A model generated the notes under the pieces. The model saw only the letters and a list, made by a program, of their open reading frames with translations, was not told the origin of the DNA and did no database searches. The translations under genes and the position numbers were made by a program. A DNA stretch of 64,000 nt from a virus: positions 25,156 through 89,155 of the IMG/VR virus record IMGVR_UViG_3300042387_000725; one strand, given 5' to 3'. This document shows, in pieces, positions 3,001 to 64,000 of this stretch (the stretch's first letter is position 1; every line of letters begins with the position of its first letter).

Positions 3001-6000
3001 CTCCACCACCCTTAGCCATCTTCATTGCACTTGAAGCAATTGATAATCTTGTCGCAACTAACTCTGCCATTTTTGTTTGTGTTAGTAGTTGTGTAACAGA
3101 CATTAGTCCAAACAATAGTCCAGAGAACTTCATTACCTGTTGAGAAACGGTACCCATTGTTCCGCCAAACATAGAGCCAGCACCTGCAAGAGATGTCAGT
3201 GCAAAGGTTCCACCCATCAATCCTTTATTAAGCTGGTCCATTCTTTGATTCATGACCTGCATCTTGGTAGCTTGTTCTTTTACCTTGCTTCTCATCATGT
3301 CTTCTTGATAAGCCATTGATAGTAATGCTGGATCAGATATTGCTATACCTCTTGATAAAGGAGATCCCTGTGGTACTGATACTCTACGTGCTCCAGACTT
3401 ACGTACTCCAGACTGAGTTCCACCTGTTGCAGCTGTACCAAGTTGTTCTCCAGACCTTTGGACATCATCAACCTTGCTATCCATTCCAACTTCAAGTCCA
3501 CGACCAATATCTTGGCCAACCTTTATAGCCTTTTTTGAAGGAGACTTGGTTTCTGCTCCTATTGCAATTCCCTCTATTGTATATTGTCCTACATCAATTC
3601 CAGCTTTACGTGCTTCTTCTACAACCTTTTTAGACATTAACTTAATGTCACCAACATATGCATCAAGCATCTTCTTTGTTTCTTTACTTAATTTTGAGTA
3701 CATTTCTTTAATTGCTGCAGCATCTCTCATGCCTGCTTCTTGTGCTGCCTTTGTTGTAAACTTTCCTCCTTGCTGAGTAGGAAAACGTCCTGGCAATTGT
3801 TCTTGTACTACTTTATTAACTTTTCTTCTATTTGTTGAAGAGTTATACGCTCCTCTAAATTGAGTTCTTCCGCCAGTTTTTACTGCACCAAACTGCTCTT
3901 TCATTGCTCCAGGTTTTCTTAGTTCTTCACGAGCAGCTCTAACTTGTTCATTTGTTTTTGCGACAACATCATATGCGTCTTGTGTTATTTTATTAATTTC
4001 TTCTGCGGTAACAGTTGTTTGATCCTTTAAGCCGTCTATTCCTTTTTCAAACTCTTTTGCTAAATCTTTAACTGCAATCTCTAGCTCTTCTGGAGAAGCA
4101 CCAGCCTCTTGCATCTTAACAAGCAATGGAGCATTATATGCACCAGCACCAGACACTGCTTCCTGTTTAAATAATTCTGTTGATGCTCTTTTACCTGAGC
4201 CAACTTCTCCAATTGCTTGATTAAGGTCTGAACTTTGAACTACAACTTCATTTGAAAATACATCAAACGCATGCTCTAGTCCATCTTGAACTGAAGCAAT
4301 TAATGTATTAATAGTATCTTTAACGCTTTGAGTTTGTGTTTTAGCAAATTCTAGTAATTCTGATCCAGTCATTTTCATTGCTGGAGCGAAATGTCCTAAC
4401 TCATAAGAATCTTGAAGCCTAAACGCCTTGTCTCCACCAACAATTCCAGCTCTCTTAAATCCAGGTATGTTTCCAGAAATAAGTCCTTCAACTATTCCAG
4501 GATACTTTTTAACTATTTCTGCAGAAATAATTGCTTCTCCATTAGAAGCCATAATTGGAACTGAGTCAGAGGTTGGCCCTCCAGGTCCTGAAATTATTCC
4601 CCCCTGTGCAAACTTCTTTGCTCCTGTTCCTGGCATCATCATTCCAGGATTAGCTCTAGCAAAGTTTGCCGATGCTACTGCTGCCGAAGAATATGCTGCT
4701 ATAAGTTTTTGTATTGCTGCTGCTTCTGCCGTAAAGGTTTGTGTTAATGTTGCGTGTGTCTGATTAAGAGAGTGAGCTGCTGCTGCAGCATCTAGCTGCT
4801 CCATTGTCATGTACTGAGTTTGTTCGCCAAGTATTTGAGACTGACCAGTTAATCTTTGATACCCGTTACGAAGTGTCATAAATAGTTTAATTATATTTGC
4901 AACACCGTTGGCAAGCAAACCAAACGTCATAAGTAGTACTGGACCTACCGCTCCAATTCCAACAGTTAAAAGTGTTATTACTTTTTTAGTTCCATCTGAA
5001 AGATTTGCAAACTTTTCAAGTATATTTGCAACAAACTCAACAATTGGAGTTACTGCCTCTAGAAATGCTTTTCCTACAGGAATGATGGCAACTTTAAGAT
5101 CTTCAACTGTTTTCTTAAATTTATTCATTGCTGATTCTGCAGTTTGACCTAATTCTTTTTCAGATAGCGAAGAAAGTTCTTCTACTGATGAATTTGCCAA
5201 ACCAAGAACTCTTGCAGCTTGATTTCCTTCTTTGGTTACGTTTGCAAACAATGCTGATAGACGTGCAAACTGGAACTTGCCAAACATCTGCTCAATAACC
5301 TGGGCCCTGTTAAGTGGATCTAGTGCATTAAGCGCATTAGCAAATTCAATAACTGTTGCTTTAAGATCACCCTTATTATTCTCAACAATTGCAGTTGCAT
5401 TAATTCCAAAAGACTTAAGCATTGCACTTGCTTTACCTGTTGGATTAATTAAAGAAGCAAGACCAGACTTTAATGCGTTTGCTCCTTCTGATGCATTAAT
5501 TCCACCTTCTTTCATTGCTGCCATAAAAAATGCTAAGTCTTTAACATCTCCACCAAGTTGCTGGATTACTGGCGCTACCTTTGGAATAGCAGTAGTAATA
5601 TCATCAAGTGATACAACTGTTTGGTTTTCTACTGCGTTAAGGAAGTTAATAGAATCTGCAAGTTTTGCAGAAGACATTCCAAAAGCATTTTGTAAAGAGA
5701 TAGTAGTTTCAAGAGCCTGCTGACTTTCAATTTGTCCAAGAATAGAAAGACGTGTTGCTTCTGTTGTTTGTCTTTGAAGATCTAAACCTGAAAAACCTGC
5801 TGCAGCAGCATCTGCTGCTAATCCAACAGTAGTAGATACAGCAACTCCATATTTAGTAAACTGCTTACCAAGCTCTGTAATATTTGCTAAGGCTTGTTCT
5901 GTTTCTTCAGCTGGAGTAAATAAGTCTCCGTATACCTTTTTAAACTTAATCGCTTGAGCTTCCATGTCCATAAAAGATTTTGCTGCTGCTGTTCCAACAG

Positions 6001-7008: not shown

Positions 7009-7701
7009 TTAAGTTAAATTCTCATACTCTAGGCCAAGTCCAATTCCAAACCCTGCTTTTTCAGCATTATATCCCTGCAATGCTAAAATATCATTACTGT
7101 CTCCAGTTGCACCACGACTAAATACTCTAGCCTTCATGTCTTCCCACTCTTTTTGTCCTTTGCCAGATTCAGAGTTAGATTCTAGGTCAACTCCTTGAAT
7201 AGCAGCCAAAAACTTTTTCTCTTCGTAATCTAGTTCTCTTTTACTTGATAACGTAATCATTAACTCTGGCATAGACAAAGACTCTTCTAGTTCTTTATAA
7301 TCTTTCCATATTCCCAGCAAAAATACTTCAGATTCAATTTTTGCTAAGTCTAAATCAAGCCAGGATGACCCACTATCTGTTGCTTGATCCTTTACGGGTT
7401 CTTCTGACTTTTGATTTATTTTTATGCCTGCAGATACATCTAAAACCTTATATATGGTTGGCATATCAATGTTATCTTCTATATCTGATTTATTTTTAGA
7501 TATTTGTGGATAAAACTGTTTCATTGCTATTCTTACGCATTCAACTAAAAAATCAATTGCCTCATCATCATTTTTAGATTTTTTTACATCTTCAAATGAT
7601 TCCATGAATTCACGTAAATATTTTATTTTTAATGGAACTATTTCCAATTCTGTTCCATCAATTAGTTTTACATTTTTGCTTTGATATACAGTTGTTGCCA
7701 T
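7009..7701 (-). CDS. Tail assembly chaperone, long (gpGT-like) form
   Basis: N-half matches 6630-6959; C-half (LGIWKDYKELEESLSMPEL) resembles post-frameshift gpT segments; position after tail tube. Confidence 0.72.
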   Translation of the reverse strand: MATTVYQSKNVKLIDGTELEIVPLKIKYLREFMESFEDVKKSKNDDEAIDFLVECVRIAMKQFYPQISKNKSDIEDNIDMPTIYKVLDVSAGIKINQKSEEPVKDQATDSGSSWLDLDLAKIESEVFLLGIWKDYKELEESLSMPELMITLSSKRELDYEEKKFLAAIQGVDLESNSESGKGQKEWEDMKARVFSRGATGDSNDILALQGYNAEKAGFGIGLGLEYENLT

Positions 7702-24650: not shown

Positions 24651-25513
24651 TTTATCCTTCTTTCTTTGTCAGCGCTAATTTTATTTGGATTATCTAGTCT
24701 AAATTCTTCTATAATAGATGGTTGCATTTCTGCCCAAACTTCTTTACCAAACTCTTTTTCTTTTTCAAACCACTCAGGACTGCCTACAGAATATTTCATC
24801 CAATACATTCTAGAAAGATACTTGTTTGCTCCCGTTGCAGGCATTACGCCATGTATGTAAACAGATCCATTTTTTGTTAATACATCTGGGTGACCTGATG
24901 GGAAAATCAAAAAATCTCCAGCCTTTGGCTTATACATGTATGCTTCACCATCAACAATAAAGTCTATCTCTCCACCTTCATAGTCGTCATTAAAATAACA
25001 AAGAGCAGTTATTGCAAACTTATACCCTGGACTTGTTATTGGCTCACGAATATAATCAGAATGATAGGTCATTGCTAGTGGGTCTTCAATATCTGTTTTA
25101 TATCTTGCTATAGATGGTCCAGTCATTTGCCATTCTTCCATAAGTTGACCATTATTTGCTAATACCGTTTTTGTTTTGTCAAGTTCTATACCATTACGTA
25201 AAGCATAGTCTTCAGTAGCTAAATAAAAATTTTTAAAAAGTTCAAGGATTGCAAGCTTTTGAAGTTCTTGTTTTTCTGTTTTTGTTTCTATTTCCTCAAT
25301 TAAGTCAATTCTTAAATTAGATTGGTAACCCTTAAACATAGGACTTAAATATTCTCCGAAATGAGCCCATTGAGTCCATGGACTAAAAATACCATCTTCT
25401 TCTCCTGTAGAATTTTTTAACAACTCATAGGTTTGTTCTATATTCTTAAAAAGATTTTTATATACAAATATTTTAGGATATATTTCAATGGCTTCTAAAG
25501 TATTTTGACTCAT
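24647..25513 (-). CDS. 2OG-Fe(II) oxygenase (prolyl-4-hydroxylase-like)
   Basis: HSD...YFNDDYEGGE...HGV...KY; start at the ATGA overlap (MSQNTL). Confidence 0.9.
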   Translation of the reverse strand: MSQNTLEAIEIYPKIFVYKNLFKNIEQTYELLKNSTGEEDGIFSPWTQWAHFGEYLSPMFKGYQSNLRIDLIEEIETKTEKQELQKLAILELFKNFYLATEDYALRNGIELDKTKTVLANNGQLMEEWQMTGPSIARYKTDIEDPLAMTYHSDYIREPITSPGYKFAITALCYFNDDYEGGEIDFIVDGEAYMYKPKAGDFLIFPSGHPDVLTKNGSVYIHGVMPATGANKYLSRMYWMKYSVGSPEWFEKEKEFGKEVWAEMQPSIIEEFRLDNPNKISADKERRIK

Positions 25514-48692: not shown

Positions 48693-49190
48693 TGGTAAAA
48701 ATTGAACATAACTTAAAATTCGTAACTGAGGTTGATGAAACCCACCCAGTAGGCATTCGCCTGCTAGAACTACCTAATGAAATGCAGATAACATTCCTTG
48801 AAAGCATGCTAAAGGATTTGCTTGTACCATACATTAAGCCTGAAATTGACCGCATAAATGAGGGTGGCTCTTATGCAATTCTAAAGGTGGCAGAATAATG
48901 ATGACACGCAAAGACTATGTAGCGGTTGCAGAAATTCTATCGTCTTATAAAGATTTAATAGGTGATGAATTTACTTTTGAGGATTTGGTAGAGGATTTTT
49001 CTGCAATGTTTTCAGATGACAATGCAAACTTCAAACATGAAAAATTTAGAGAGGCGTGTATGAAATGAATCGCTTACTAACTTCACTGGTGCAATTATTT
49101 TTAGCAGGTAGCGTAATTATTTTATTTCGCATGATGTTGCCAATGCTAAAAGAAGATTGGCAAGAAATAAAAAACGATTTGCGAAAGTAA
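48692..49190 (+). CDS. Three coupled small proteins (48692-48898, 48898-49068 MTRKDY-type, 49065-49190 with TM helix)
   Basis: Overlapping start/stop codons and SD motifs. Confidence 0.65.
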
Positions 49191-49196
49191 ATCATG

Positions 49197-49223
49197 ATCC
49201 TGAGCAAGATATAAAACTGCTCA
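49197..49223 (+). ncRNA. Predicted H-type pseudoknot, UGAGC/GCUCA family, copy 1
   Basis: ATC-C-TGAGC-AA-GAT-ATAAAACT-GCTCA. Confidence 0.65.
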
Positions 49224-49633
49224 ATTTTGGGCCGAGGCGTTTTCCACAGGTTTATCCACAGGCTATTAAGTGTGATTAAAAACACACCCCCAAAATCCCT
49301 GAAACTAGGGTTAAGAAGTTGAGTTTGTCACCCCCATAGTGTAGGATATTTATATCAAGTTAATTAAAGAAAGAAGGCTCACCATGACCTATACATGTAT
49401 GCAGTGTAATGAAAATGCAGTAGATGTAACTGAACTCTATTGCTTCCGTTGCTATCTTGACCGTGAGGTAGAAGCGATGATAGAGTATGACTATATCAAT
49501 TCACTATTCACCACTCAGGAGGCTAAGTAATGAACTACTATGACGACTACTATGAAAATCCAGAACCTGTATATGCAGGTTGCTATTGCAAACTAAACTA
49601 TCTATGCTCAGAATGTAAAGGAAGTTATAACTA

Positions 49634-49849
49634 ATGGAATACTTATACTCAGTAACTTGCACATATGACGGAGACCGCTCACCTCATTGGGTTGGTCGTT
49701 TTGATAACGCTATTGACGCAGTTAATTCATGGAATAAATTTGTTGATTGGGGCATGGCTCAGGAATATTCAACAGTTAATTTCTCAGAGCCTTCAGGCAA
49801 AATGCACACCAAAATCTTTTATCGCAACGGAAATGTAGGGGGTAAGTAA
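49634..49849 (+). CDS. Hypothetical protein
   Basis: Coupled ORF with SD. Confidence 0.7.
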   Translation: MEYLYSVTCTYDGDRSPHWVGRFDNAIDAVNSWNKFVDWGMAQEYSTVNFSEPSGKMHTKIFYRNGNVGGK

Positions 49850-49850
49850 T

Positions 49851-50189
49851 ATGGGTTCAGTTACAGCACTAGGAATTCAGGATACAGTCTTGGACTTGGA
49901 GACTCAGATTCTCTATCACCTTAAAGGTAATCACTATCCACCTGTACCCGCAGAAATGGTAGCGCCATGCATTGAAGCCATTGACGCATACTACGATGAG
50001 GACTATGACCGCATGATTGACATGCCAAAGGTTGGTGACTTTCAGATTCTCTACAAGAATTCAACAGTTGCACCTGCATGGGCTATCGTAGAGCAACACC
50101 ACCTTCAGACTTTCATTGACTCAGTAGATGATTGGCAAGATGGGTCAGACGACTTCCCACTCTCACTAGAATATGATGAGGGGGAATAA
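49851..50189 (+). CDS. Hypothetical protein (HLxxNHYPP motif)
   Basis: YHLKGNHYPPVP...IVEQHHL. Confidence 0.75.
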   Translation: MGSVTALGIQDTVLDLETQILYHLKGNHYPPVPAEMVAPCIEAIDAYYDEDYDRMIDMPKVGDFQILYKNSTVAPAWAIVEQHHLQTFIDSVDDWQDGSDDFPLSLEYDEGE

Positions 50190-50190
50190 A

Positions 50191-50433
50191 ATGAGTGCTA
50201 CAATAAAGAATATGGAACTAGTATGGGCAGATAAATTAACGCCAGGGTCACTGATGGAAGGTGACTTAATTAAAGTTGATGGCGATCTAATTGAAGTTAT
50301 TAGCATTAATTCTGATTCAACAGGTGATAACTATTTTATTGAATATGCTGATCCATATGGCGAACAAGATACATTAACAATTTTATATGACACATATGTT
50401 GATTTATATGTGTATGTAGATTTAGACGATTAG
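50191..50433 (+). CDS. Small acidic SH3-like protein
   Basis: LTPGSLMEGDLIKVDG. Confidence 0.6.
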   Translation: MSATIKNMELVWADKLTPGSLMEGDLIKVDGDLIEVISINSDSTGDNYFIEYADPYGEQDTLTILYDTYVDLYVYVDLDD

Positions 50434-50514
50434 CAGTTGGGCTCGGGGGCCCTGTGAGATTCATCACAATTAAGAGGATTTGATATTTTTCCCAATTCTT
50501 GCTAAAATTATTAC

Positions 50515-50664
50515 ATGAAAAAAACACCAGAGGAATTAAGGCGACTAATGGAGCTTCGCCGTTCTAATGCTGCCTCTGCAGTCCCCAACAAAAAGAAATA
50601 TGACAGAAAGAAATGTCAGTCCCAAATGCTAAAATTAATAAAAGAAAGAGGCCACCATGACTAA
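50515..50664 (+). CDS. Small basic protein (LRRSNAA...KKKYDRK)
   Basis: Leaderless TTGATA-17-TAAAAT-6-ATG; 49 aa. Confidence 0.65.
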   Translation: MKKTPEELRRLMELRRSNAASAVPNKKKYDRKKCQSQMLKLIKERGHHD

Positions 50665-51379
50665 ACTACTACGCTCTAAAGATAGAAAAGTTGCAAACCT
50701 TGTAACACCTAACGGTAAGCAAGCAAGCATTGCTAATACATTTGGATTACCTGCAGGCAAGGCATACTCATGTCCTGGTGCTACTAGCGTATGCGAAAGT
50801 GTATGCTATGCAGGTAAGTTAGAAAAAGTATTCCCAACAGTTAAAGTTAATCTATTGCATAACTGGAATCTACTTAAAGACGCAGACTATGAAACCATGG
50901 TAGCGCTACTTAAAGAAATGATAGTAGATTTTATTAAAGATTGTGCAAAGAAAGACGCACCATTGCTATTCCGTATCCATTGGGACGGAGATTTCTTTAA
51001 CGATACCTACGCATATGCATGGAAGCAAGTAATCATGGATTATCGCCATGTACAGTTCTGGGTATATACACGTGTAGAGACAGCAGCGGTAATGCTTAAA
51101 GACCAACCTAATCTATCTTTATATTATTCTACAGATAGTGAGAATAAGGCTACAGGTATTGCACTTAAAAATGATCATGACATATCCCTTGCATACCTTG
51201 CAAAAAATTTCTTAACAGGGCAAGCAGACATGAAAGAATTAACAGGCAAGCCTGGTGCTAAATGTCCTGAGAATAAAAAAGCAATTCCACTTATCTCACA
51301 ACAGGGCTCTGCGTGTGCAACCTGCAAATTGTGTATTTATGAGAAGTCTGATATAGTATTTAGCGCAACCAAAAAGTAA
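50657..51379 (+). CDS. Gp88-like Fe-S/radical-SAM-related protein
   Basis: FGLPAGKAYSCPGATSVCESVCYA, FRIHWDGDF, FWVYTR, C-terminal CATCKLC. Confidence 0.8.
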   Translation: MTKLLRSKDRKVANLVTPNGKQASIANTFGLPAGKAYSCPGATSVCESVCYAGKLEKVFPTVKVNLLHNWNLLKDADYETMVALLKEMIVDFIKDCAKKDAPLLFRIHWDGDFFNDTYAYAWKQVIMDYRHVQFWVYTRVETAAVMLKDQPNLSLYYSTDSENKATGIALKNDHDISLAYLAKNFLTGQADMKELTGKPGAKCPENKKAIPLISQQGSACATCKLCIYEKSDIVFSATKK

Positions 51380-51573
51380 GGGCTACTTATGGAATATCTA
51401 ATACTAGTTATCCTATTATTCATAATCCTACTGGCGGGTATGGGGCATGAGTGACCTATATCACACCAAAAATGTCTCAAAATATGAGATTTTTAGGGTT
51501 TGGATTTGATAAATGTCAGAGCATAAATGTATAATATAAATATAAGCAAAACCAACTACAAAGGAGAAACACA

Positions 51574-51738
51574 ATGTCAGTAGCAACATCAACATACAAG
51601 GTAGGCGACACTTTCACCACACAGAAGTCAAAGGTCACAGGAACTATTGAGGAAATTATCCCTCAGCCAAATGGTAATGTGCGTGTGAAGTTAATGGTAG
51701 ATGGAAAGCCACGCTATACAACTTGGACAGCCAAGTAA
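51574..51738 (+). CDS. Small SH3/KOW-like protein
   Basis: YKVGD...GTIEEI...VRVKL; SD aaggag. Confidence 0.7.
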   Translation: MSVATSTYKVGDTFTTQKSKVTGTIEEIIPQPNGNVRVKLMVDGKPRYTTWTAK

Positions 51739-51761
51739 GTTTGGCAATAACGCCAAAAAAC

Positions 51762-51834
51762 ACACGCCCCACAGAAATGCGTGTCTAAATAAATAGAGTG
51801 GGACAACCTGAGCAAGTTGTCAAAAGGCTCACCA
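51762..51834 (+). ncRNA. Two abutting predicted H-type pseudoknots (includes family copy 2, ending CCA)
   Basis: ACACGC/GCGTGT with CCCAC/GTGGG, then GACAAC-C-TGAGC-AA-GTTGTC-AAAAG-GCTCA-CCA. Confidence 0.7.
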
Positions 51835-51894
51835 TAATGTCAGTACCACCCCCTATAATAGAAATATCAACCACCAAAGAAAAGAGAGCAACAA

Positions 51895-52320
51895 ATGGCA
51901 ACAAGAGGAAAAGCAATCTCAGTAAAAATCGCAACAACAAAGGTAATCAACGCACTAGAAGGCGCACTCGCTAAACTAGAACTTGACTACACAACACAAG
52001 AAGCCAACGAAGCAAAGCATGAAATTGCTCGCAAGGCTTGGCAGAACGAACTTATTGCTTATGCTACTAAGCATATTGCAAATGCAGAAAACTTCCGCAC
52101 ATCATATCGTTCATGGAACAATCAACTCAACATTGACTTTGACCTAACAGTTTCAGAGTCAGAGTTGCCAGCGCAACCTGAAAAGGACTTCATCACAATG
52201 AGCCAATACGAATACAAGGAAAAGCGTGAGGAACTCTCAAACGCAATTCGTATTCTCAAAATGACAGATGAGGAAGTTGTAAATACTTCCACATACAATG
52301 CGGTGGCTCGCTACCTATAA
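51895..52320 (+). CDS. Hypothetical coiled-coil protein
   Basis: 141 aa, preceded by a PafBC-type promoter. Confidence 0.8.
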   Translation: MATRGKAISVKIATTKVINALEGALAKLELDYTTQEANEAKHEIARKAWQNELIAYATKHIANAENFRTSYRSWNNQLNIDFDLTVSESELPAQPEKDFITMSQYEYKEKREELSNAIRILKMTDEEVVNTSTYNAVARYL

Positions 52321-52550
52321 AACTTAGGGGGGCAACTTAAAGTCCTGAACCCTAACGACCTAAGTAAGTCGCAAAACTGCTTAACAGAGTTACTGCCAGT
52401 GCTATAGCGAGGCAAGTGCATTCCTGAGTAAGAATTAAAACTGCTCAACTTCGCCAGGCTGATTAGGGCGATAATAGAAATACTATAGAGCAAGGGTACT
52501 GCAGCCCTAAAGAAGCAGACATCCTGAGTATGATCCAAAACTGCTCACCA
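52321..52550 (+). ncRNA. Tandem array of predicted pseudoknots (family copies 3-5 plus interspersed others)
   Basis: Family copies at 52356-52383, 52420-52447, 52521-52550; others at 52394-52422 and 52493-52518. Confidence 0.7.
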
Positions 52551-52709
52551 ATATTTATTCAGCTGATTGCATAAGTATGCGGGGCCGAGATAATGTGAGA
52601 TTAATCACACCCATTAAGTCTCACTATTTAAGATTCCTGGAATTACGTCTTGCATTTGTCAGTGGCCATTGCTAGAATTATATTATTAACTAAACAGAAA
52701 GAGGCCCCC

Positions 52710-53171
52710 ATGGACCACGAAAAGCCAACACTAACAAACGAATACTACATGACAAGAGAATTTCTTGAGCGACAGATTGCTGCACTAACAGAGTCAATTG
52801 AGAAAAAGGATGCATTGATTATTTCATTGCAGGACCGTTCATCAGAACATTCATCAACTCTTCTTACAGAGCGCCGTGCACATCTAGCAACTATGAATTC
52901 AATTAAAGAATATGTAGTTGAATCAGTCCGTAATGGAGAAATGAATCATTCAGTTGCAGAAGCGCTTGCTGAGATTTGTGAGTTTGAATTAACTAAGACT
53001 GTAACTGTTACTGCAACAGTTGAGTTTGAAGTTGAACTAGAGGTGCCATTTGAAGTAGATGCAGAAGAAGTTGCTAACACTCTTGAATTCAGTGTTGACT
53101 CATTTGATTATTCAATTGATGACTTCAGCGTTGATACCCGCTCAATTCAAGCAGAGGATAATATTTCATAG
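52710..53171 (+). CDS. Acidic hypothetical protein
   Basis: SD gaaagagg, MDHEKP start. Confidence 0.75.
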   Translation: MDHEKPTLTNEYYMTREFLERQIAALTESIEKKDALIISLQDRSSEHSSTLLTERRAHLATMNSIKEYVVESVRNGEMNHSVAEALAEICEFELTKTVTVTATVEFEVELEVPFEVDAEEVANTLEFSVDSFDYSIDDFSVDTRSIQAEDNIS

Positions 53172-53184
53172 GGGGCTATGAGAT

Positions 53185-53248
53185 AAGACCTACCGCATGT
53201 CTTTAAACTAGGTTAGCGGACCTGAGCATTGTCCACGTAAACGGCTCA
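53185..53248 (+). ncRNA. Pseudoknot pair including family copy 6
   Basis: GGAC-C-TGAGC-ATT-GTCC-ACGTAAACG-GCTCA, preceded by an AAGAC/GTCTT stem variant. Confidence 0.6.
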
Positions 53249-53422
53249 CTTTTTATTGCAAAAAAAATCTCGGGGGCAAAAACTTTCATTTGTCAAATTA
53301 AGAGGGTATGATTAAGATCACAGAAAAAATGTCCGATTTATGCCTATTTAACTATCCTGATTTGCATTTGTCAGTCCATGGGTGTATAGTTATCTTATCA
53401 ACAACAAAAAGGAGAAACACTC

Positions 53423-54445
53423 ATGGCACATGACCTAGAAACACAAAACGGCAAGACATCTTTTGCATCTTTCCGTGAACCTGCATGGCATGGATTGGGT
53501 ACTGTATTCACAGAAGAAAAAACAACCGCAGAAATGCTAGAGGCTGCAAGCCTTAATGGTTGGAATGTTCGTCTTGAGGATATGCCAATTCCATCACATC
53601 TTACAAGCGACAAGGCATATCAGTATGTCCTACGCACTAACCCTACAGATAACACACAGACAGATGTTCTTGGTGTTGTAGGTGAGCGTTATCATGTATT
53701 GCAAAATGAAGATTTATTTTCATTTGGTGATAATATTCTTGACGGCGGTGGTCGTTGGGAAACCGCTGGCGCTATCAAGGGTGGGCGTGTAGTATTTGGC
53801 TCACTTGCACTAGAGCGTGAGACAGTTCTTGACCCTAGCGGTGTTGCAGATAAGGTAAAGACTTATTTGCTCATCAACACATCACACGATGGTTCTATCG
53901 CAATTCAAGCAAGCATTACACCTGTTCGTGTAGTGTGCGCTAACACTCTTAACCTTGCGCTAGGTGGCGTAGGTCGTAAGAAAAATAAGGGTATCAAGCA
54001 ATCATTCAAGATTCGCCATACTCAGACCGCTAATGGCAAGGTGCAAATTGCTCGTGAGACTCTTGGTCTTGCTAATGCGTACATGGACGAATTTGATATC
54101 ATGGCTAAGGCTATGTTTGAGAAGGAAGTCAATGCTAAGCAATTCAATGACATCATTCTTGCTGCTTACCCTAAGCCTGAAAAGGATTCTAAGGGTGCGT
54201 TCAAGAAGTGGGAAAACAAGGTAGATGTTATTAACGATATCTACACTGGCGAATTTAATGGCATGATTGCTGGCTCTGCATGGGGCGCTTTCAATGCACT
54301 TACAGAACGCCTTGATTGGTATCGCACTGCAAGAGGTGGTTCTAACGAATCTATCCTTGCAAGCGCAAGTGGTTTTGACCCTGCAATTAACGCAGAGAAA
54401 AATCGTTTGCTAAAAGTTGTGCAGAATGTAATGTCAATCGCATAA
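53423..54445 (+). CDS. DUF932 / TIGR03299 phage-plasmid protein
   Basis: PAWHGLG...VGERYHVLQN...ETAGAIKGG...NTSHDGS...TPVRVVCANTL...IRHT. Confidence 0.9.
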   Translation: MAHDLETQNGKTSFASFREPAWHGLGTVFTEEKTTAEMLEAASLNGWNVRLEDMPIPSHLTSDKAYQYVLRTNPTDNTQTDVLGVVGERYHVLQNEDLFSFGDNILDGGGRWETAGAIKGGRVVFGSLALERETVLDPSGVADKVKTYLLINTSHDGSIAIQASITPVRVVCANTLNLALGGVGRKKNKGIKQSFKIRHTQTANGKVQIARETLGLANAYMDEFDIMAKAMFEKEVNAKQFNDIILAAYPKPEKDSKGAFKKWENKVDVINDIYTGEFNGMIAGSAWGAFNALTERLDWYRTARGGSNESILASASGFDPAINAEKNRLLKVVQNVMSIA

Positions 54446-54450
54446 CAAAA

Positions 54451-54482
54451 AAATCCTGAGCAAGATTTAAAACTGCTCACCA
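54451..54482 (+). ncRNA. Predicted pseudoknot, family copy 7, ending CCA just before tRNA-Asp
   Basis: AAATC-C-TGAGC-AA-GATTT-AAAACT-GCTCA-CCA. Confidence 0.68.
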
Positions 54483-54483
54483 G

Positions 54484-54557
54484 GATCTCATAGCTCAATT
54501 GGTTAGAGCGCTACCCTGTCACGGTAGAGGTTGCGAGTTCAAGTCTCGTTGGGATCG
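54484..54557 (+). tRNA. tRNA-Asp(GTC)
   Basis: Full cloverleaf: GATCTCA/TGGGATC acceptor, CTACC-CTGTCAC-GGTAG anticodon arm, TTCAAGT T-loop; no encoded CCA. Confidence 0.93.
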
Positions 54558-54690
54558 CAAAAGTTGGGCTCGGGATTTTTCTAAACTAAACAATTTAATG
54601 TCAAACCTTATTAAGATGAAATGACATTTTTCCCTGAAATTCTATTAAGAGGGACTTGAATTTGTCACCGTTCTTGGCTATAATTAATAT

Positions 54691-55238
54691 ATGACTACAC
54701 CATACAGCCCATATACCATAAACGAACTCGTAAATGCTATTTATGAGGATAACCTATCGCACTTTGAATTTGAGGAGAACATGGGTGGAGAACCCTGTGA
54801 CTGCCACCTACATATTACCATGGAAACTATTGTCAAGTATTGGGGAGAGTAATGTTAGGTTATACTAAAACAGATCTAGATGAGATGACTAATGCTATTG
54901 ATTCTGCTATGACTACCGTCAATCCTGACGATGACCCTTGGCTACATTCAAGACTGTTTATGGCCAGGGATTTCTTAGATGGCCTATGGGCAGAAGGCTA
55001 CTTTGACTAATGTCAGTGGCTACCTCTATAATTAATACATACACCAAAGGAGAAATAAATGGCAACATTTGATATCAAAGTAGTAGTAGAGTATTTCTAC
55101 GAAGTAGAAGCAGATAACGCAGAACAAGCAGAAGAACTAGGCTGGCACTATGAGGACTATGCTTTCTCAGGTGAGGTTTATTCTATTGATGTAACTCAGA
55201 CCTCTGAAGATGATGAGGATGAAGAAGATGACAACTAA
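54691..55238 (+). CDS. Three small acidic proteins (54691-54852, 54852-55010, 55059-55238)
   Basis: Leaderless or SD starts after PafBC-type promoters; coupled stops. Confidence 0.65.
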
Positions 55239-61699: not shown

Positions 61700-61878
61700 A
61701 TACGCATTTGACTTAAGTAACCCTAAAGGGTATACTTGATATATGACTAGAAAATGCTATGTTTGCCGTAGGCATATTGATGACAATAATACTTTCTTTG
61801 TAAATCCCGCCAATGGTAGGGTGGCTGCAAATGGCGTTGCATTCTGTATGGAATGTATCCCAGCACAGGATGTTGCAG

Positions 61879-63641: not shown

Positions 63642-63715
63642 GTGCCAGTAGCTTAGTTGGTTAAAGCCCCAAACTCATAATTTGGTAATCGTAGGTTCAA
63701 GTCCTACCTGGCACA
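63642..63715 (+). tRNA. tRNA with CAT anticodon (Met or lysidine-Ile2)
   Basis: GTGCCAG/CTGGCAC acceptor, CCAAA-CTCATAA-TTTGG arm. Confidence 0.9.
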
Positions 63716-63719
63716 CTAG

Positions 63720-63792
63720 TGGTCTGTAGCTCAGTTGGTAGAGCGCCGAACTGTTAATTCGGATGTCGCAGGATCGTGACCTGCCAGACCAG
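63720..63792 (+). tRNA. tRNA-Asn(GTT)
   Basis: TGGTCTG/CAGACCA acceptor, CCGAA-CTGTTAA-TTCGG arm; atypical T-loop ATCGTGA. Confidence 0.88.
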
Positions 63793-63796
63793 CAAT

Positions 63797-63870
63797 GCGG
63801 ATGTTGCATAATGGTAGTGCCTCTGCCTTCCAAGCAGATAGTGCCAGTTCAATTCTGGTCATCCGCTCCA
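63797..63870 (+). tRNA. tRNA-Gly(TCC)
   Basis: GCGGATG/CATCCGC acceptor, TCTGC-CTTCCAA-GCAGA arm, encoded CCA. Confidence 0.93.
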
Positions 63871-63871
63871 A

Positions 63872-63944
63872 GTCCTTATAGCTCAGTTGGTAGAGCAGCA
63901 GACTTTTAATCTGCGGGTCACTGGTTCAAGCCCAGTTGGGGACA
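63872..63944 (+). tRNA. tRNA-Lys(TTT)
   Basis: GTCCTTA/TGGGGAC acceptor, GCAGA-CTTTTAA-TCTGC arm. Confidence 0.93.
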
Positions 63945-63945
63945 C

Positions 63946-64000
63946 GCCTTTGTAGCTCAGGGGATAGAGCGACGGACTTCTAATCCGCAGGTCGCAGGTT
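63946..64000 (+). tRNA. tRNA-Arg(TCT), truncated by window end
   Basis: D-arm GCTC/GAGC, anticodon loop CTTCTAA, start of T-arm. Confidence 0.85.

Follow-up and report, generated by a model that had tools for sequence, protein, structure and literature searches.

A covarying RNA pseudoknot placed just after gene ends in phages of many phyla

Background

Compact H-type RNA pseudoknots are best described in eukaryotic RNA viruses. The coremin motif (xrRNA-C) and its Watson-Crick variant (xrRNA-WCC) occur in plant, fungal and invertebrate RNA viruses, in tandem copies and mostly in 3' UTRs (Dilweg/Olsthoorn: PMC6546385, PMC10321173, PMC10520033). The motif has a short first hairpin (hp1) of 3-5 bp, whose sequence is free but whose loop-closing pair must be C-G (pyrimidine 5'), a single essential L1 nucleotide, a loop of the form YGAD (4 nt) or YGNNAD (6 nt), and a conserved spacer UUAAACUAC with essential AAA, CU and AC. 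An H-type knot has been proposed between the loop and the spacer, with 3 pairs or non-canonical pairs made with CUAC; in xrRNA-WCC, S2 is GAG/CUC, and the one natural WCC example starts 8 nt after the last ORF. A second hairpin, hp2, directly downstream is needed for Xrn1 resistance. The luteoviral -1 frameshift pseudoknots (BWYV, PLRV) have similar dimensions, with a short L1 carrying C in the deep groove of S2, a 1-2 nt junction and an A-rich L3 along the minor groove of S1, and they start about 5 nt downstream of the codon in the ribosomal A site; a -1 programmed frameshift stimulator needs a slippery heptamer 5-9 nt upstream and an overlapping downstream frame. In bacteria, the preQ1-I riboswitch aptamer (Rfam RF00522) is a roughly 30-nt H-type knot with an A-rich tail ending in ACU. 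The 3' stabilising structures of bacterial and phage mRNAs, such as terminator hairpins, REP elements and the RNase III-processed hairpins between T7 early genes, are plain hairpins that are not known to be conserved in sequence across phyla.

Here we examine a family of seven short repeats in a phage, first noticed in a sequence-only reading of a 64,000-nt stretch (the window) of the IMG/VR record IMGVR_UViG_3300042387_000725, positions 25,156 to 89,155. That reading proposed covarying H-type pseudoknots of about 30 nt, intergenic, on the sense strand and downstream of genes it presumed to be early. Are these repeats real RNA structures, are they private to this phage, and what might they do?

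Results

Seven copies in the window

The observation is confirmed: all seven copies are present on the + strand, intergenic and downstream of stop codons, and the P1 pairings first listed for them are correct and all pair. The consensus is NNNC-C-UGAGY-AW-GNNN-(N)AAACU-GCUCA. The pattern CCTGAGYAWN{8,16}GCTCA gives 6 matches in the window against 0.01 expected from 100 shuffles, and the seventh copy is a UAAGU/GCUUA variant. A regular-expression scan of the whole 89,155-bp record finds the same seven and nothing else. A covariance model finds six of them at E<=4e-5 and copy 6 only weakly.

Copy 1 (49197-49223, 44.7 bits) has P1 AUC/GAU, L1 C, P2 UGAGC/GCUCA, L2 AA and L3 AUAAAACU, and its closing C lies 8 nt after the TAA stop (49188-49190) of the 44-aa ORF 49056-49190. 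Copy 2 (51802-51831, 23.1 bits) has P1 GACAAC/GUUGUC, P2 UGAGC/GCUCA and L3 AAAAG; it lies 68 nt after a stop and is followed by CCA and a promoter-like TGTCAG-N17-TATAAT. Copy 3 (52356-52383, 38.6 bits) has P1 CGAC/GUCG and P2 UAAGU/GCUUA, that is, a compensated change of pair 9-29 from G-C to A-U plus a U.G wobble, and it is the first of three tandem copies, 38 nt after the ORF ending at 52320. It is followed by copy 4 (52420-52447, 45.5 bits), with P1 AUUC/GAAU and P2 UGAGU/GCUCA, and by copy 5 (52521-52547, 42.7 bits), with P1 AUC/GAU, P2 UGAGU/GCUCA and a following CCA. The U12.G26 wobbles in copies 3-5 are also as first read. Copy 6 (53218-53248, 8.4 bits, E 1.1) is the most divergent, with P1 GGAC/GUCC, L2 AUU, L3 ACGUAAACG and P2 UGAGC/GCUCA; it lies 49 nt after a stop and is followed directly by CUUUUUAUU. 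Copy 7 (54451-54479, 50.8 bits) has P1 AAAUC/GAUUU and P2 UGAGC/GCUCA. Its closing C lies 9 nt after the TAA stop of the DUF932 gene (53423-54445), and the knot ends 4 nt (CCAG) before a tRNA-Asp(GUC) gene (54484-54558, + strand). By inference, RNase P processing of the tRNA 5' end would leave the upstream mRNA ending 4 nt after copy 7. A possible degenerate eighth copy lies at 53186-53215 on the + strand (AGAC-C-UACCGC-AU-GUCU-UUAAACU..., 9.2 bits, E 0.65); read by eye, its P1 and L3 fit, but its P2 is doubtful, at best 3 bp.

Every knot-bearing spacer in the window is followed by a promoter-like site. One, TTGTCA-N17-TATATT, lies at 52656-52684 (+ strand) downstream of copies 3-5, and similar sites at 53290-53318, 53368-53396 and 54662-54690 follow copies 6 and 7. 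They suggest by inference that the knots close one transcription unit before the next begins, but they come from a consensus scan only, and the total number of promoter-like sites is not above that in shuffles. No ordinary terminator-like site was found on the + strand in the knot-bearing spacers of 49000-54700.

Distribution and covariation

The motif is not private to this phage. In IMG/VR it occurs in paired P2 forms in very many unrelated phages. The motif also occurs in MAG and prophage contigs of many phyla and in cultured phages (Mycobacterium phage Labelle, Nostoc phage NMeng1, Geobacillus phage D6E). A match to a characterised Rfam family had been named beforehand as the outcome that would remove novelty; Rfam 15 has no match, and literature searches found no description of the element.

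P1 covaries strongly. Its pairs are paired in 107/107, 106/107 and 84/107 sequences, with four pair types each, although the P1 columns were free in the search pattern. None of 500 shuffles reaches the covariation score, and slid controls give 26-42% paired against 97.5%. P2 covaries significantly. It was tested among 267 candidate copies that were not the ascertaining match: pair 9-29 is GC 58, GU 11, AU 16, AC 7 (Fisher p=3.5e-6), pair 12-26 is CG 46, UG 12, UA 5, CA 0, and pair 11-27 is GC 58, AU 2. In a scan that was agnostic to P2, 6 of the 55 candidates with a non-consensus P2 5' strand paired at all five positions, against about 0.4 expected. They include the compensated UAGGU/GCCUA, UGAAC/GUUCA, UGGAC/GUCCA and UAGAC/GUCUA, plus two that pair only through G.U wobbles (UGGGC/GCUCA, UGGGC/GUUUG). 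The U.G wobbles occur only in the sense orientation, which argues for RNA. An A.C mismatch at pair 9-29 is, however, tolerated in many copies (116 loci, 91 with P1 of at least 3 bp). The H-type pseudoknot stands. The core length is 25 nt in 107 of 141 matches although 22-29 nt was allowed, and G15 and A13 are invariant in 107 of 107 although G15 was free in the pattern.

Placement relative to genes

The knot lies on the coding strand in 171 of 175 instances. Among 475 distinct instances, 343 have the stop of an ORF of at least 50 aa within 60 nt upstream. The distance from that stop to the closing C of the invariant CC is 8 nt, the mode, in 88, 9 nt in 44 and under 8 nt in only 7, and this limit is independent of P1 length. 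Of the copies that have a nearby stop, 44% lie more than 12 nt from it. The distance to the next Shine-Dalgarno or start is broad. Upstream and downstream genes are diverse and no partner gene co-occurs. Many of these counts include related contigs, for example the DUF932 + tRNA-Asp lineage (21 of 150 upstream ORFs).

What follows the knot? A same-strand tRNA lies within 150 nt downstream in 34 of 475 instances (eight tRNA types), 33 of them at 1-13 nt. Rfam Hammerhead_3 matches start 2 nt inside the knot's last bases in locus L143 (50.5 and 41.2 bits) and in locus L230, where one of its two matches (44.3 bits) abuts a canonical knot. The other (44.4 bits) lies about 15 nt downstream of the P2 3' strand of a variant copy with a 2-nt L1 and a 4-bp P2, read by eye. 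A U-run follows 30 of 236 copies, against a 2.7% background (p=3e-12); in the window only copy 6 has one, while the Methanobrevibacter copies are also followed by U5-7. CCA follows 23 of 236 knots against 3 expected, many of these cases coming from the one tRNA-Asp lineage. Several copies face convergent ORFs or precede ordinary terminators. On the other hand, 166 of 475 copies are followed within 90 nt by a Shine-Dalgarno and an open frame, so they are internal to operons. A minority sit in apparent 5' leaders, behind a TATAAT box and hairpins and 7-10 nt before a Shine-Dalgarno, and in Firmicutes siphophages the knot recurs just upstream of the scaffold and major-capsid genes.

Comparison with described knots

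The closest known relatives are the coremin/xrRNA and luteoviral pseudoknots. As in coremin, the closing pair is C-G (C6-G15 in 107 of 107), the other P1 pairs are free in sequence and covary, and L1 is a single nucleotide; the GAG/CUC of xrRNA-WCC is the core of the phage UGAGC/GCUCA. Tandem copies and a start close after an ORF, at 8 nt in the one natural WCC example, are further likenesses. Membership fails, however, because the loop differs and there is no hp2 hairpin. The phage loop is 8 nt (C-UGAGY-AW), where the first Y and the last A-D fit but the second base is U, not G. No 4-nt or 6-nt loop class is enriched in 2.0 Mb of loci, although those loci were chosen with the 8-nt pattern. 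NNAAACU is present in 5 of 7 window copies (the other two have AAAAG and AAACG), while in the IMG/VR hits AAACU was imposed by the pattern; the AC of the spacer is replaced by the P2 3' strand GCUCA, and P2 is 4-6 Watson-Crick pairs made with the bases after AAACU. A hairpin starting within 4 nt after the knot occurs in 22 of 253, against a shuffled mean of 25.9 and 41 at a control offset, and the mean folding energy of the first 35 nt is no lower than in controls. The carriers are DNA phages of bacteria, and perhaps archaea, which have no Xrn1.

The phage knot shares the compact dimensions of the luteoviral knots, but it follows stop codons (TAA 80, TAG 15, TGA 6 among the listed copies) with no overlapping frame, and no shared slippery heptamer was seen in the listed flanks, which were inspected by eye only. 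Like the 3' stabilising hairpins of bacteria and phages it lies at gene ends and between cistrons, and in the window it alternates with promoter-like sites in what would be a run of short transcription units, but it is a sequence-conserved pseudoknot shared by phages of many phyla.

Discussion

The interpretation of the sequence-only reading is partly supported. Its structural claim holds and generalises far beyond this phage, and of the functions it listed, the contexts favour a 3'-exonuclease block or processing-linked element. Its comparison with preQ1-I is rejected. No RF00522 match was found at gathering score, at E<=10 over 49000-54700 or at E<=1 over four other loci; L2 is 1-2 nt rather than 4-6 nt with the ligand-pairing C; and the element follows stop codons of unrelated genes rather than lying in leaders of queuosine synthesis or transport genes, with no queuosine-gene family among the PHROG families tallied in the flanks. 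The proposal of a type III antitoxin RNA such as ToxI is also rejected as unsupported. Instead of a regular tandem array of about 36-nt repeats directly upstream of a toxN-type gene, the copies are dispersed over 5.3 kb and the three closest are spaced 64 and 100 nt apart. No PF13958 match was found in the record, which is weak evidence since the controls of that search were also silent. A protein decoy or ligand sensor is neither supported nor excluded.

Why would unrelated phages place such a knot after their genes? Our best reading, held tentatively and with somewhat less than even confidence, is a compact, triplex-type knot that caps gene or mRNA 3' ends. In this view each copy is transcribed as part of the mRNA of the gene upstream and folds with a P1 of 3-6 bp closed by an invariant C-G pair, a one-nucleotide loop C crossing the deep groove of P2, a P2 of 4-6 bp (UGAGY(A)/(U)GCUCA), and an A-rich loop AAAC(U) lying along P1. 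It would sit as close to the stop codon as a terminating ribosome allows, so that the ribosome does not melt it. The transcript would then be ended a few nucleotides downstream by RNase P at an abutting tRNA, by a hammerhead ribozyme, or by a U-run or terminator, while in operons the end would come from decay arriving from downstream. The knot with its very short 3' tail would stop 3'-to-5' exoribonucleases and so preserve the upstream coding region. As it has no gene partner and occurs in phages of many phyla, it must work alone or with universal machinery. Our data establish the fold (by covariation), its strand, its placement and what follows it; the triplex contacts, the exonuclease block and the resulting stabilisation of the mRNA are inferred, and there is no direct evidence for RNA 3' ends. 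Several points speak against this reading. Many copies are internal to operons and a minority sit in apparent 5' leaders, the position before scaffold and major-capsid genes would fit protection of the downstream RNA equally well, and where a normal terminator follows, a 3' cap is redundant. From what is known of luteoviral and coremin knots, the triplex reinforces P1, the helix met first by enzymes moving 5' to 3', not 3' to 5'. The stop-codon limit could also reflect genome compaction plus avoidance of overlap with the ribosome rather than a specific function, and the tolerated A.C mismatch and the related contigs in the counts should be kept in mind.

A wider reading, which is unlikely on present evidence but not excluded, is that the knot is the prokaryotic-virus counterpart of the coremin-type xrRNA: a protein-free, roughly 27-nt mechanical knot that halts processive enzymes (exoribonucleases and ribosomes) in bacteria and possibly archaea. 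Phages would then use it as universal punctuation to give each gene cassette its own RNA lifetime, and the knot-capped fragments left after processing might accumulate as small RNAs that tie up host RNases. If so, the shared C-G closing pair, single-nucleotide L1, GAG/CUC pairing and AAACU loop would reflect one optimal fold, found twice or inherited.

Other explanations were weighed and are less likely. One is a roadblock for machines moving 5' to 3', such as RNase J-type exonucleases, ribosomes that read through or scan after termination, or Rho, which would protect or insulate the next cistron, its ribosome-binding site or a tRNA precursor. The architecture matches that of coremin/xrRNA-C and luteoviral frameshift knots, which resist Xrn1 and ribosomes (PMC6546385, PMC10321173), and the first P1 pair typically lies about 5 nt after the stop codon, the spacing at which frameshift knots meet the ribosome. 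The copies upstream of scaffold and major-capsid genes in Firmicutes phages, whose hosts have RNase J, and those before a Shine-Dalgarno would fit as well. However, when a tRNA or a hammerhead abuts the knot, cleavage separates it from everything downstream, and U-run, convergent and terminator contexts have nothing downstream to protect. The hp2 hairpin is not enriched, the spacing is sharp towards the upstream stop but loose towards the downstream Shine-Dalgarno, and the motif also occurs in Vibrio phages, whose hosts are not known to have a 5'-3' exoribonuclease. We consider this reading unlikely, though it is the strongest of the alternatives.

Still less likely is a specific binding site for a universal host protein (for example RNase P, a ribosomal protein or the CCA-adding enzyme) or a small molecule, or a released small knot RNA acting as a decoy. 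The unpaired nucleotides are conserved well beyond what a stable helix needs, the core length is nearly fixed, CCA is enriched after the knot, and the P2 helix GAGC/GCUC has the same sequence as the consensus tRNA D-stem. Yet there is no partner gene, the element lies after genes rather than in leaders of a defined regulon, and the conserved loop nucleotides are those expected for the triple contacts of compact H-type knots (PMC10321173). About as unlikely is a transcription signal, in which P2 forming at the RNA exit channel pauses or terminates RNA polymerase as a pseudoknot version of the intrinsic-terminator hairpin. The roughly five-fold enrichment of U-runs, the lack of ordinary terminator-like sites in the window spacers and the promoter-like sites that follow are in its favour, but 87% of copies have no U-run, many are internal to operons, some are followed by a separate canonical terminator, and a terminator role does not explain the conserved loop nucleotides or the link to tRNA and hammerhead. 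Very unlikely is a DNA-level recombination or mobility site at the borders of gene cassettes, with the RNA structure incidental. Homology between related contigs does stop at the knot in some pairs: without a matched control junction, 25 of 124 pairs homologous upstream are not homologous downstream, and 7 of 66 pairs homologous downstream are not homologous upstream, for example the locus pairs L076/L079 and L081/L082. But the strand is fixed relative to the genes, U.G pairs would be A.C mismatches on the other strand, an interleaved pairing is not a known DNA recombination substrate, and the limit of 8 nt to the stop codon points to the ribosome.

Genomic setting and anatomy of the seven copies

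The window covers bases 25156-89155 of a single 89,155-bp IMG/VR virus record with CheckV completeness 82% and 36.8% G+C. Genes around the knots include a GP88-family protein (50657-51379) and a DUF932 protein (53423-54445), and these families are shared with actinobacteriophages. A search of sequencing runs for the stretch returned only lake and freshwater DNA metagenomes. The sequence-only reading had placed seven copies here, and this observation holds: all seven are at those places on the + strand, and a regular-expression scan of the whole record finds no others. The strict pattern CCTGAGYAWN{8,16}GCTCA gives 6 matches against 0.01 expected, and the seventh copy (52356-52383, copy 3) carries UAAGU/GCUUA. 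An isolated match to the 3' half only (UAAACUGCUUACCA; 12.3 bits, E 0.07) at 5851-5870 (+) has no P1 or P2 partner and is probably chance.

Each copy begins with a P1 of 3-6 bp ending in an invariant C-G pair, followed by one loop base, C, the P2 5' strand UGAGY, A-W at the junction, the P1 3' strand, an A-rich loop ending in AAAC(U/G), and the P2 3' strand GCUCA. Nested folding of the seven copies gives weak z-scores (+0.26 to -2.85) and picks either P1 or a 6-bp P2 that includes A13-U25, which is uninformative for a pseudoknot; the A13-U25 pair would make P2 6 bp in five of the seven copies. A generic pseudoknot scan was too noisy to use.

Distribution among phages and prokaryotic contigs

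Is the motif private to this phage? The pattern CCTGAGYAWN{3,10}AAACTGCTCA gave at least 120 loci and at least 141 matches in IMG/VR. The P1 positions were free in this pattern, and even so 139 of 141 matches have at least 3 contiguous P1 pairs right at the expected place. A gap-free alignment was built of 107 distinct copies, 5 from the window and 102 from IMG/VR. In this alignment the three free P1 pairs are paired in 107/107, 106/107 and 84/107, with four Watson-Crick types each. None of 500 shuffles reaches the covariation score, and sliding the partner by 1-3 columns drops pairing from 97.5% to 26-42%. G15 was also free in the pattern and is invariant. The core is 25 nt long in 107 of 141 matches although 22-29 nt was allowed.

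The same pattern was applied to one genome per prokaryotic species and gave 118 loci, of which 64 have a proper P1 and 54 are chance matches without P1, among them Aliivibrio fischeri and a third Methanobrevibacter contig (L195). The 64 lie in contigs labelled as Saccharibacteria (several), other Patescibacteria, Anaerolineae, Polynucleobacter, Brucella, Ligilactobacillus, Lacticaseibacillus, Alistipes, Melioribacter, Omnitrophota, Phormidium, two Methanobrevibacter MAGs and others. Where the neighbours were examined, they are phage or mobile-element genes. In the two Methanobrevibacter-labelled MAG contigs (L148 377-402 and L180 1893-1918) canonical knots are followed by U6-7 and lie upstream of an ArdC/IrrE-like gene. 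The labels of MAG contigs, including the archaeal ones, rest on binning; if the binning is right, the motif crosses into archaeal mobile elements.

BLAST with two 33-nt copies finds the motif in cultured phages, and seven of these were read in detail. Canonical knots occur in Mycobacterium phage Labelle, Geobacillus phage D6E and Nostoc phage NMeng1, while four-pair P2 variants occur in Synechococcus phage S-EIVl, Lactobacillus phage phiEF-1.1 and Vibrio phage D454. A degenerate form with a three-pair P2, followed by U5, occurs in Staphylococcus aureus Phietavirus phiJB (NC_028669.1 21444-21484), where it lies between a small ORF after the minor-head gene and the scaffold gene, and was annotated by the depositors as 'putative promoter P5R'. 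This is the one read among 83 matching Staphylococcus phage records, and the listed records share the same alignment span and identity.

Evidence for the P2 helix

The search patterns fixed P2, so is this helix real? We tested it in three other ways. In the first, a scan that ignores P2 and requires CC-N5-AW-G, P1 of at least 4 bp, and AAAC found 55 candidates whose P2 5' strand is not consensus. Six of them are paired at all five positions, against about 0.4 expected. Four, UAGGU/GCCUA, UGAAC/GUUCA, UGGAC/GUCCA and UAGAC/GUCUA, carry compensatory changes on both strands, while UGGGC/GCUCA and UGGGC/GUUUG pair only through G.U wobbles. In the second, IMG/VR was scanned for the four combinations at pair 9-29. 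The A.C mismatch gave a complete list of 116 loci, of which 91 matches have P1 of at least 3 bp, in 47 distinct sequences counting the chance matches too, with many repeats of one lineage. The mismatch is thus tolerated more often than expected, but the counts for G-C, A-U and G.U are lower bounds, so that the four cannot be compared in a 2x2 test.

In the third, one ascertaining match per locus was therefore dropped and the remaining distinct candidates, 267 in 464 viral loci, were tabulated. Pair 9-29 is GC 58, GU 11, AU 16 and AC 7 (odds ratio 12, p=3.5e-6); pair 12-26 is CG 46, UG 12, UA 5 and CA 0 (p=9e-4); pair 11-27 is GC 58 and AU 2; pair 10-28 is almost invariant; and the outer pair 8-30 is unpaired in 21 of 87. 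Related contigs inflate these numbers, but the direction is clear: P2 is a real helix of 4-5 (perhaps 6) pairs with a strongly preferred sequence. U.G wobbles in the sense orientation would be A.C on the other strand, and together with the fixed strand relative to genes this points to RNA. It should be noticed that ascertainment throughout was by fixed patterns, with several counts that are lower bounds, that many counts include related contigs, and that our loose detector has some false positives, such as window 61806-61836, which lies inside an ORF; it also missed copy 3.

Placement relative to genes

The knot lies on the coding strand in 171 of 175 instances. The largest set holds 475 distinct instances with 150-nt flanks, and in 343 of them an ORF of at least 50 aa ends within 60 nt upstream. 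The number of bases between the stop codon and the closing C of P1 is 8 in 88 cases, 9 in 44 and 10-12 in 60, followed by a long tail, and only 7 cases are below 8. The limit does not move with P1 length. With the stop codon in the ribosomal A site, 8 bases put the first P1 pair at about +12 from the first base of the P-site codon, just outside the mRNA channel and helicase (about +11). On this geometry the knot is packed as close as it can be without being melted by a terminating ribosome. This looks like a hard lower limit plus compaction rather than an obligatory spacing, since 44% of the copies with a nearby stop lie further than 12 nt, and in the window only copies 1 and 7 are at 8-9 nt. 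Towards the next gene the spacing is loose: the distance from knot end to Shine-Dalgarno is 0-75 nt with a weak mode at 8-16. A gene partner was sought among 150 upstream and 101 downstream ORFs, crudely called as the longest frame of at least 40-50 aa, and none emerged, the gene families on both sides being otherwise diverse.

In Firmicutes siphophages, however, the knot recurs between the portal or minor-head genes and the scaffold and major-capsid genes. This holds for S. aureus phiJB, Lactobacillus phiEF-1.1, Geobacillus D6E and two Lactobacillaceae prophages (L160 and L170), the copies in the last four being better paired (4-5 P2 pairs) than that of phiJB.

Elements downstream of the knot

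A same-strand tRNA gene lies within 150 nt downstream in 34 of 475 instances, 33 of them with a spacer of 1-13 nt. The types are Asp 23, Arg 4, Ser 2, and one each of Gln, Ala, Lys, Pro and Gly. Window copy 7, next to tRNA-Asp at 54484, is one of these, and many of the Asp cases belong to one lineage that also shares the upstream DUF932 gene (21 of 150 upstream ORFs). In contrast, a cluster of tRNA genes at window 63642-64000 (+) (Met, Asn, Gly, Lys and a fifth cut by the window end) has no knot beside it.

Type III hammerhead ribozymes (Rfam RF00008) were found on the - strand of two of the collected loci, one match being above the gathering score and three at E of 1e-6 to 8e-6. In locus L143 two matches (7271-7325 and 7541-7595; 50.5 bits, above the gathering score, and 41.2 bits) begin 2 nt inside the last bases of a knot. 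In the probably related L230, one of two matches (5317-5371, 44.3 bits) does the same, while the other (5656-5710, 44.4 bits) lies about 15 nt downstream of the P2 3' strand of a variant copy with a 2-nt L1 and a 4-bp P2, as read by eye. Self-cleavage would leave the knot with a 5-nt tail. These hammerheads are a possible clue to what phage hammerheads are for. Three further loci (L002, L005 and L495) have hammerhead-like cores without Rfam confirmation.

A U-run follows 30 of 236 knots, against 2.7% after ordinary ORF ends (p=3e-12), and the first nine bases after the knot are strongly G-poor. CCA follows 23 of 236, against 3 expected; this count is what bears on the idea of a tRNA-acceptor mimic. 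Several knots face a convergent ORF or precede an ordinary terminator. On the other hand, 166 of 475 are followed within 90 nt by a Shine-Dalgarno and an open frame, and so are internal to operons. There are also 69 copies with no upstream stop codon, small ORF or knot within range, and the flanks inspected among them include several in which the knot is the last element of what looks like a structured 5' leader (contigs L025, L109, L118, L119, L017 and L098). The order is a TATAAT box, one or two conserved hairpins, the knot, and then a Shine-Dalgarno 7-10 nt on.

The knot may also mark mosaic junctions. Related contigs can be near-identical up to the knot and unrelated after it, as in the pairs L076/L079, L081/L082 and L049/L058. 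This was the case in 25 of 124 pairs homologous upstream, and in 7 of 66 the other way round, in a comparison that lacked a matched control; an ungapped version of it was misleading because of indels.

Possible function

How does the knot most likely work? Three 3'-end-making devices abut it: the RNase P site of a tRNA, a self-cleaving ribozyme, and a U-run. In each, the knot would end up a few bases from an RNA 3' end and be cut off from everything downstream, where it could only serve the upstream RNA or itself. Taken with its sharp placement relative to the upstream stop, we read it tentatively as a gene-end cap, the likeliest single explanation but one held with less than even confidence. 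In this view it would be a compact knot that stays folded while ribosomes terminate and leaves no naked spacer for endonucleases. PNPase and RNase R need a 3' tail to grip, and with a tail too short for such 3' exonucleases the knot would preserve the upstream coding region. The invariant loop C, the junction A and the AAAC loop are what one expects for the base triples of luteovirus-type knots (PMC10321173). While the two helices and the placement come from the sequence comparisons themselves, these contacts, the cap and any protection from exonucleases are inferred from sequence alone, and the function is unproven.

The main rival, which we consider unlikely though not negligible, is a roadblock for 5'-to-3' machines, whether RNase J-type enzymes or ribosomes. 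It is favoured by the resemblance to coremin and frameshift knots and by the copies in leaders and upstream of capsid genes. A two-way 'insulator' would reconcile both readings. A terminator, a ligand or protein site, and a DNA-level element are less likely still.

Why does the motif matter? A 27-nt RNA with near-invariant loops, found at gene ends in phages of many phyla and, by MAG binning, Methanobrevibacter, would be one of the most widespread unnamed cis-acting RNA elements of phages, the hosts including Actinobacteria, Firmicutes, Cyanobacteria, Proteobacteria, Bacteroidota and Patescibacteria. If it caps mRNA ends, it would explain how phages with few ordinary terminators define stable transcripts, why tRNA genes and hammerhead ribozymes so often sit between phage genes, and what those hammerheads are for. 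It would also give synthetic biology a tiny, host-independent RNA stabiliser or insulator, and it links phage RNA biology to the xrRNA and frameshift-knot field. The question is easily accessible to experiment because cultured phages carry canonical copies.

Comparison with known RNA elements

Rfam 15 has no family for the motif. Nothing matches the knots at gathering score on the whole window or on 16 loci, nor at E<=10 or E<=1 on the region and on four loci; only tRNAs, Hammerhead_3 and chance snoRNA-like hits appeared. The interpretation of the sequence-only reading is partly supported: an RNA pseudoknot stands, while membership in the preQ1-I and ToxI families fails outright.

The motif was also compared with coremin (PMC6546385, PMC10321173, PMC10520033, PMC11702639). 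Coremin shares with the phage knot a 3-5 bp hairpin with a free stem sequence, an obligatory C-G closing pair, a single essential L1 base, and a loop ending in A-D. Its spacer has an essential AAACU; this word is present in 5 of the 7 window copies, the other two having AAAAG and AAACG, and in the IMG/VR hits it was imposed by the search pattern. Its Watson-Crick variant pairs GAG with CUC, and the one natural example starts 8 nt after the last ORF. However, three defining features fail. The phage loop is 8 nt with U at position 2 and does not fit the consensus YGAD/YGNNAD; P2 is made with the bases after AAACU; and the downstream hairpin hp2, needed for Xrn1 resistance, is not enriched, at 22 of 253 against 25.9 in shuffles. 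Thus the knot may work and fold like a coremin or luteoviral knot, but it is not a member of that family as defined.

Literature searches found no description of this phage motif, and a search on coremin in phages gave one irrelevant paper. The 10-nt word AAACUGCUCA occurs in a tombusvirus preprint only as part of a RACE sequence. The main text of PMC10690425 ('over ten thousand candidate structured RNAs in viruses and phages') does not mention the motif, though its supplementary lists could contain it. Compact viral H-type knots that resist processive enzymes are already known, and we place the motif beside them as a form that differs from coremin in its loop, its P2 and the lack of an enriched hp2.

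Other recurrent elements around the knots in the window

The seven copies lie in five spacers, and no ordinary terminator was found on the + strand in these spacers. Each is followed by a promoter-like TTGTCA-N17-TAnnnT site or, for copy 7, by tRNA-Asp and then such a site. The repeated module, (T)TTGTCA-N17-TAnnnT, lies at 49318-49356, 51836-51866, 52648-52684, 53283-53318, 53361-53396 and 54654-54690 and precedes each short gene group, so that the region reads as a chain of small transcription units, each closed by one or more knots. Operator-like palindromes of the type TGTGAGATTAATCACA lie between the knots and the promoters, at 49270-49287, 50453-50468, 52594-52609 and about 53306-53322, and are a candidate repressor or activator binding site shared by the units. 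A further short G+C-rich box (GGGCCGAG / GGGCTCGGG), at 49226-49240, 50437-50449, 52578-52592 and 54564-54578, recurs just after the knots, after the ORF ending at 50433, and after tRNA-Asp. TCCACAG words follow copy 1 (49244-49262), and similar words follow knots in three of the collected loci (L003, L008 and L113).
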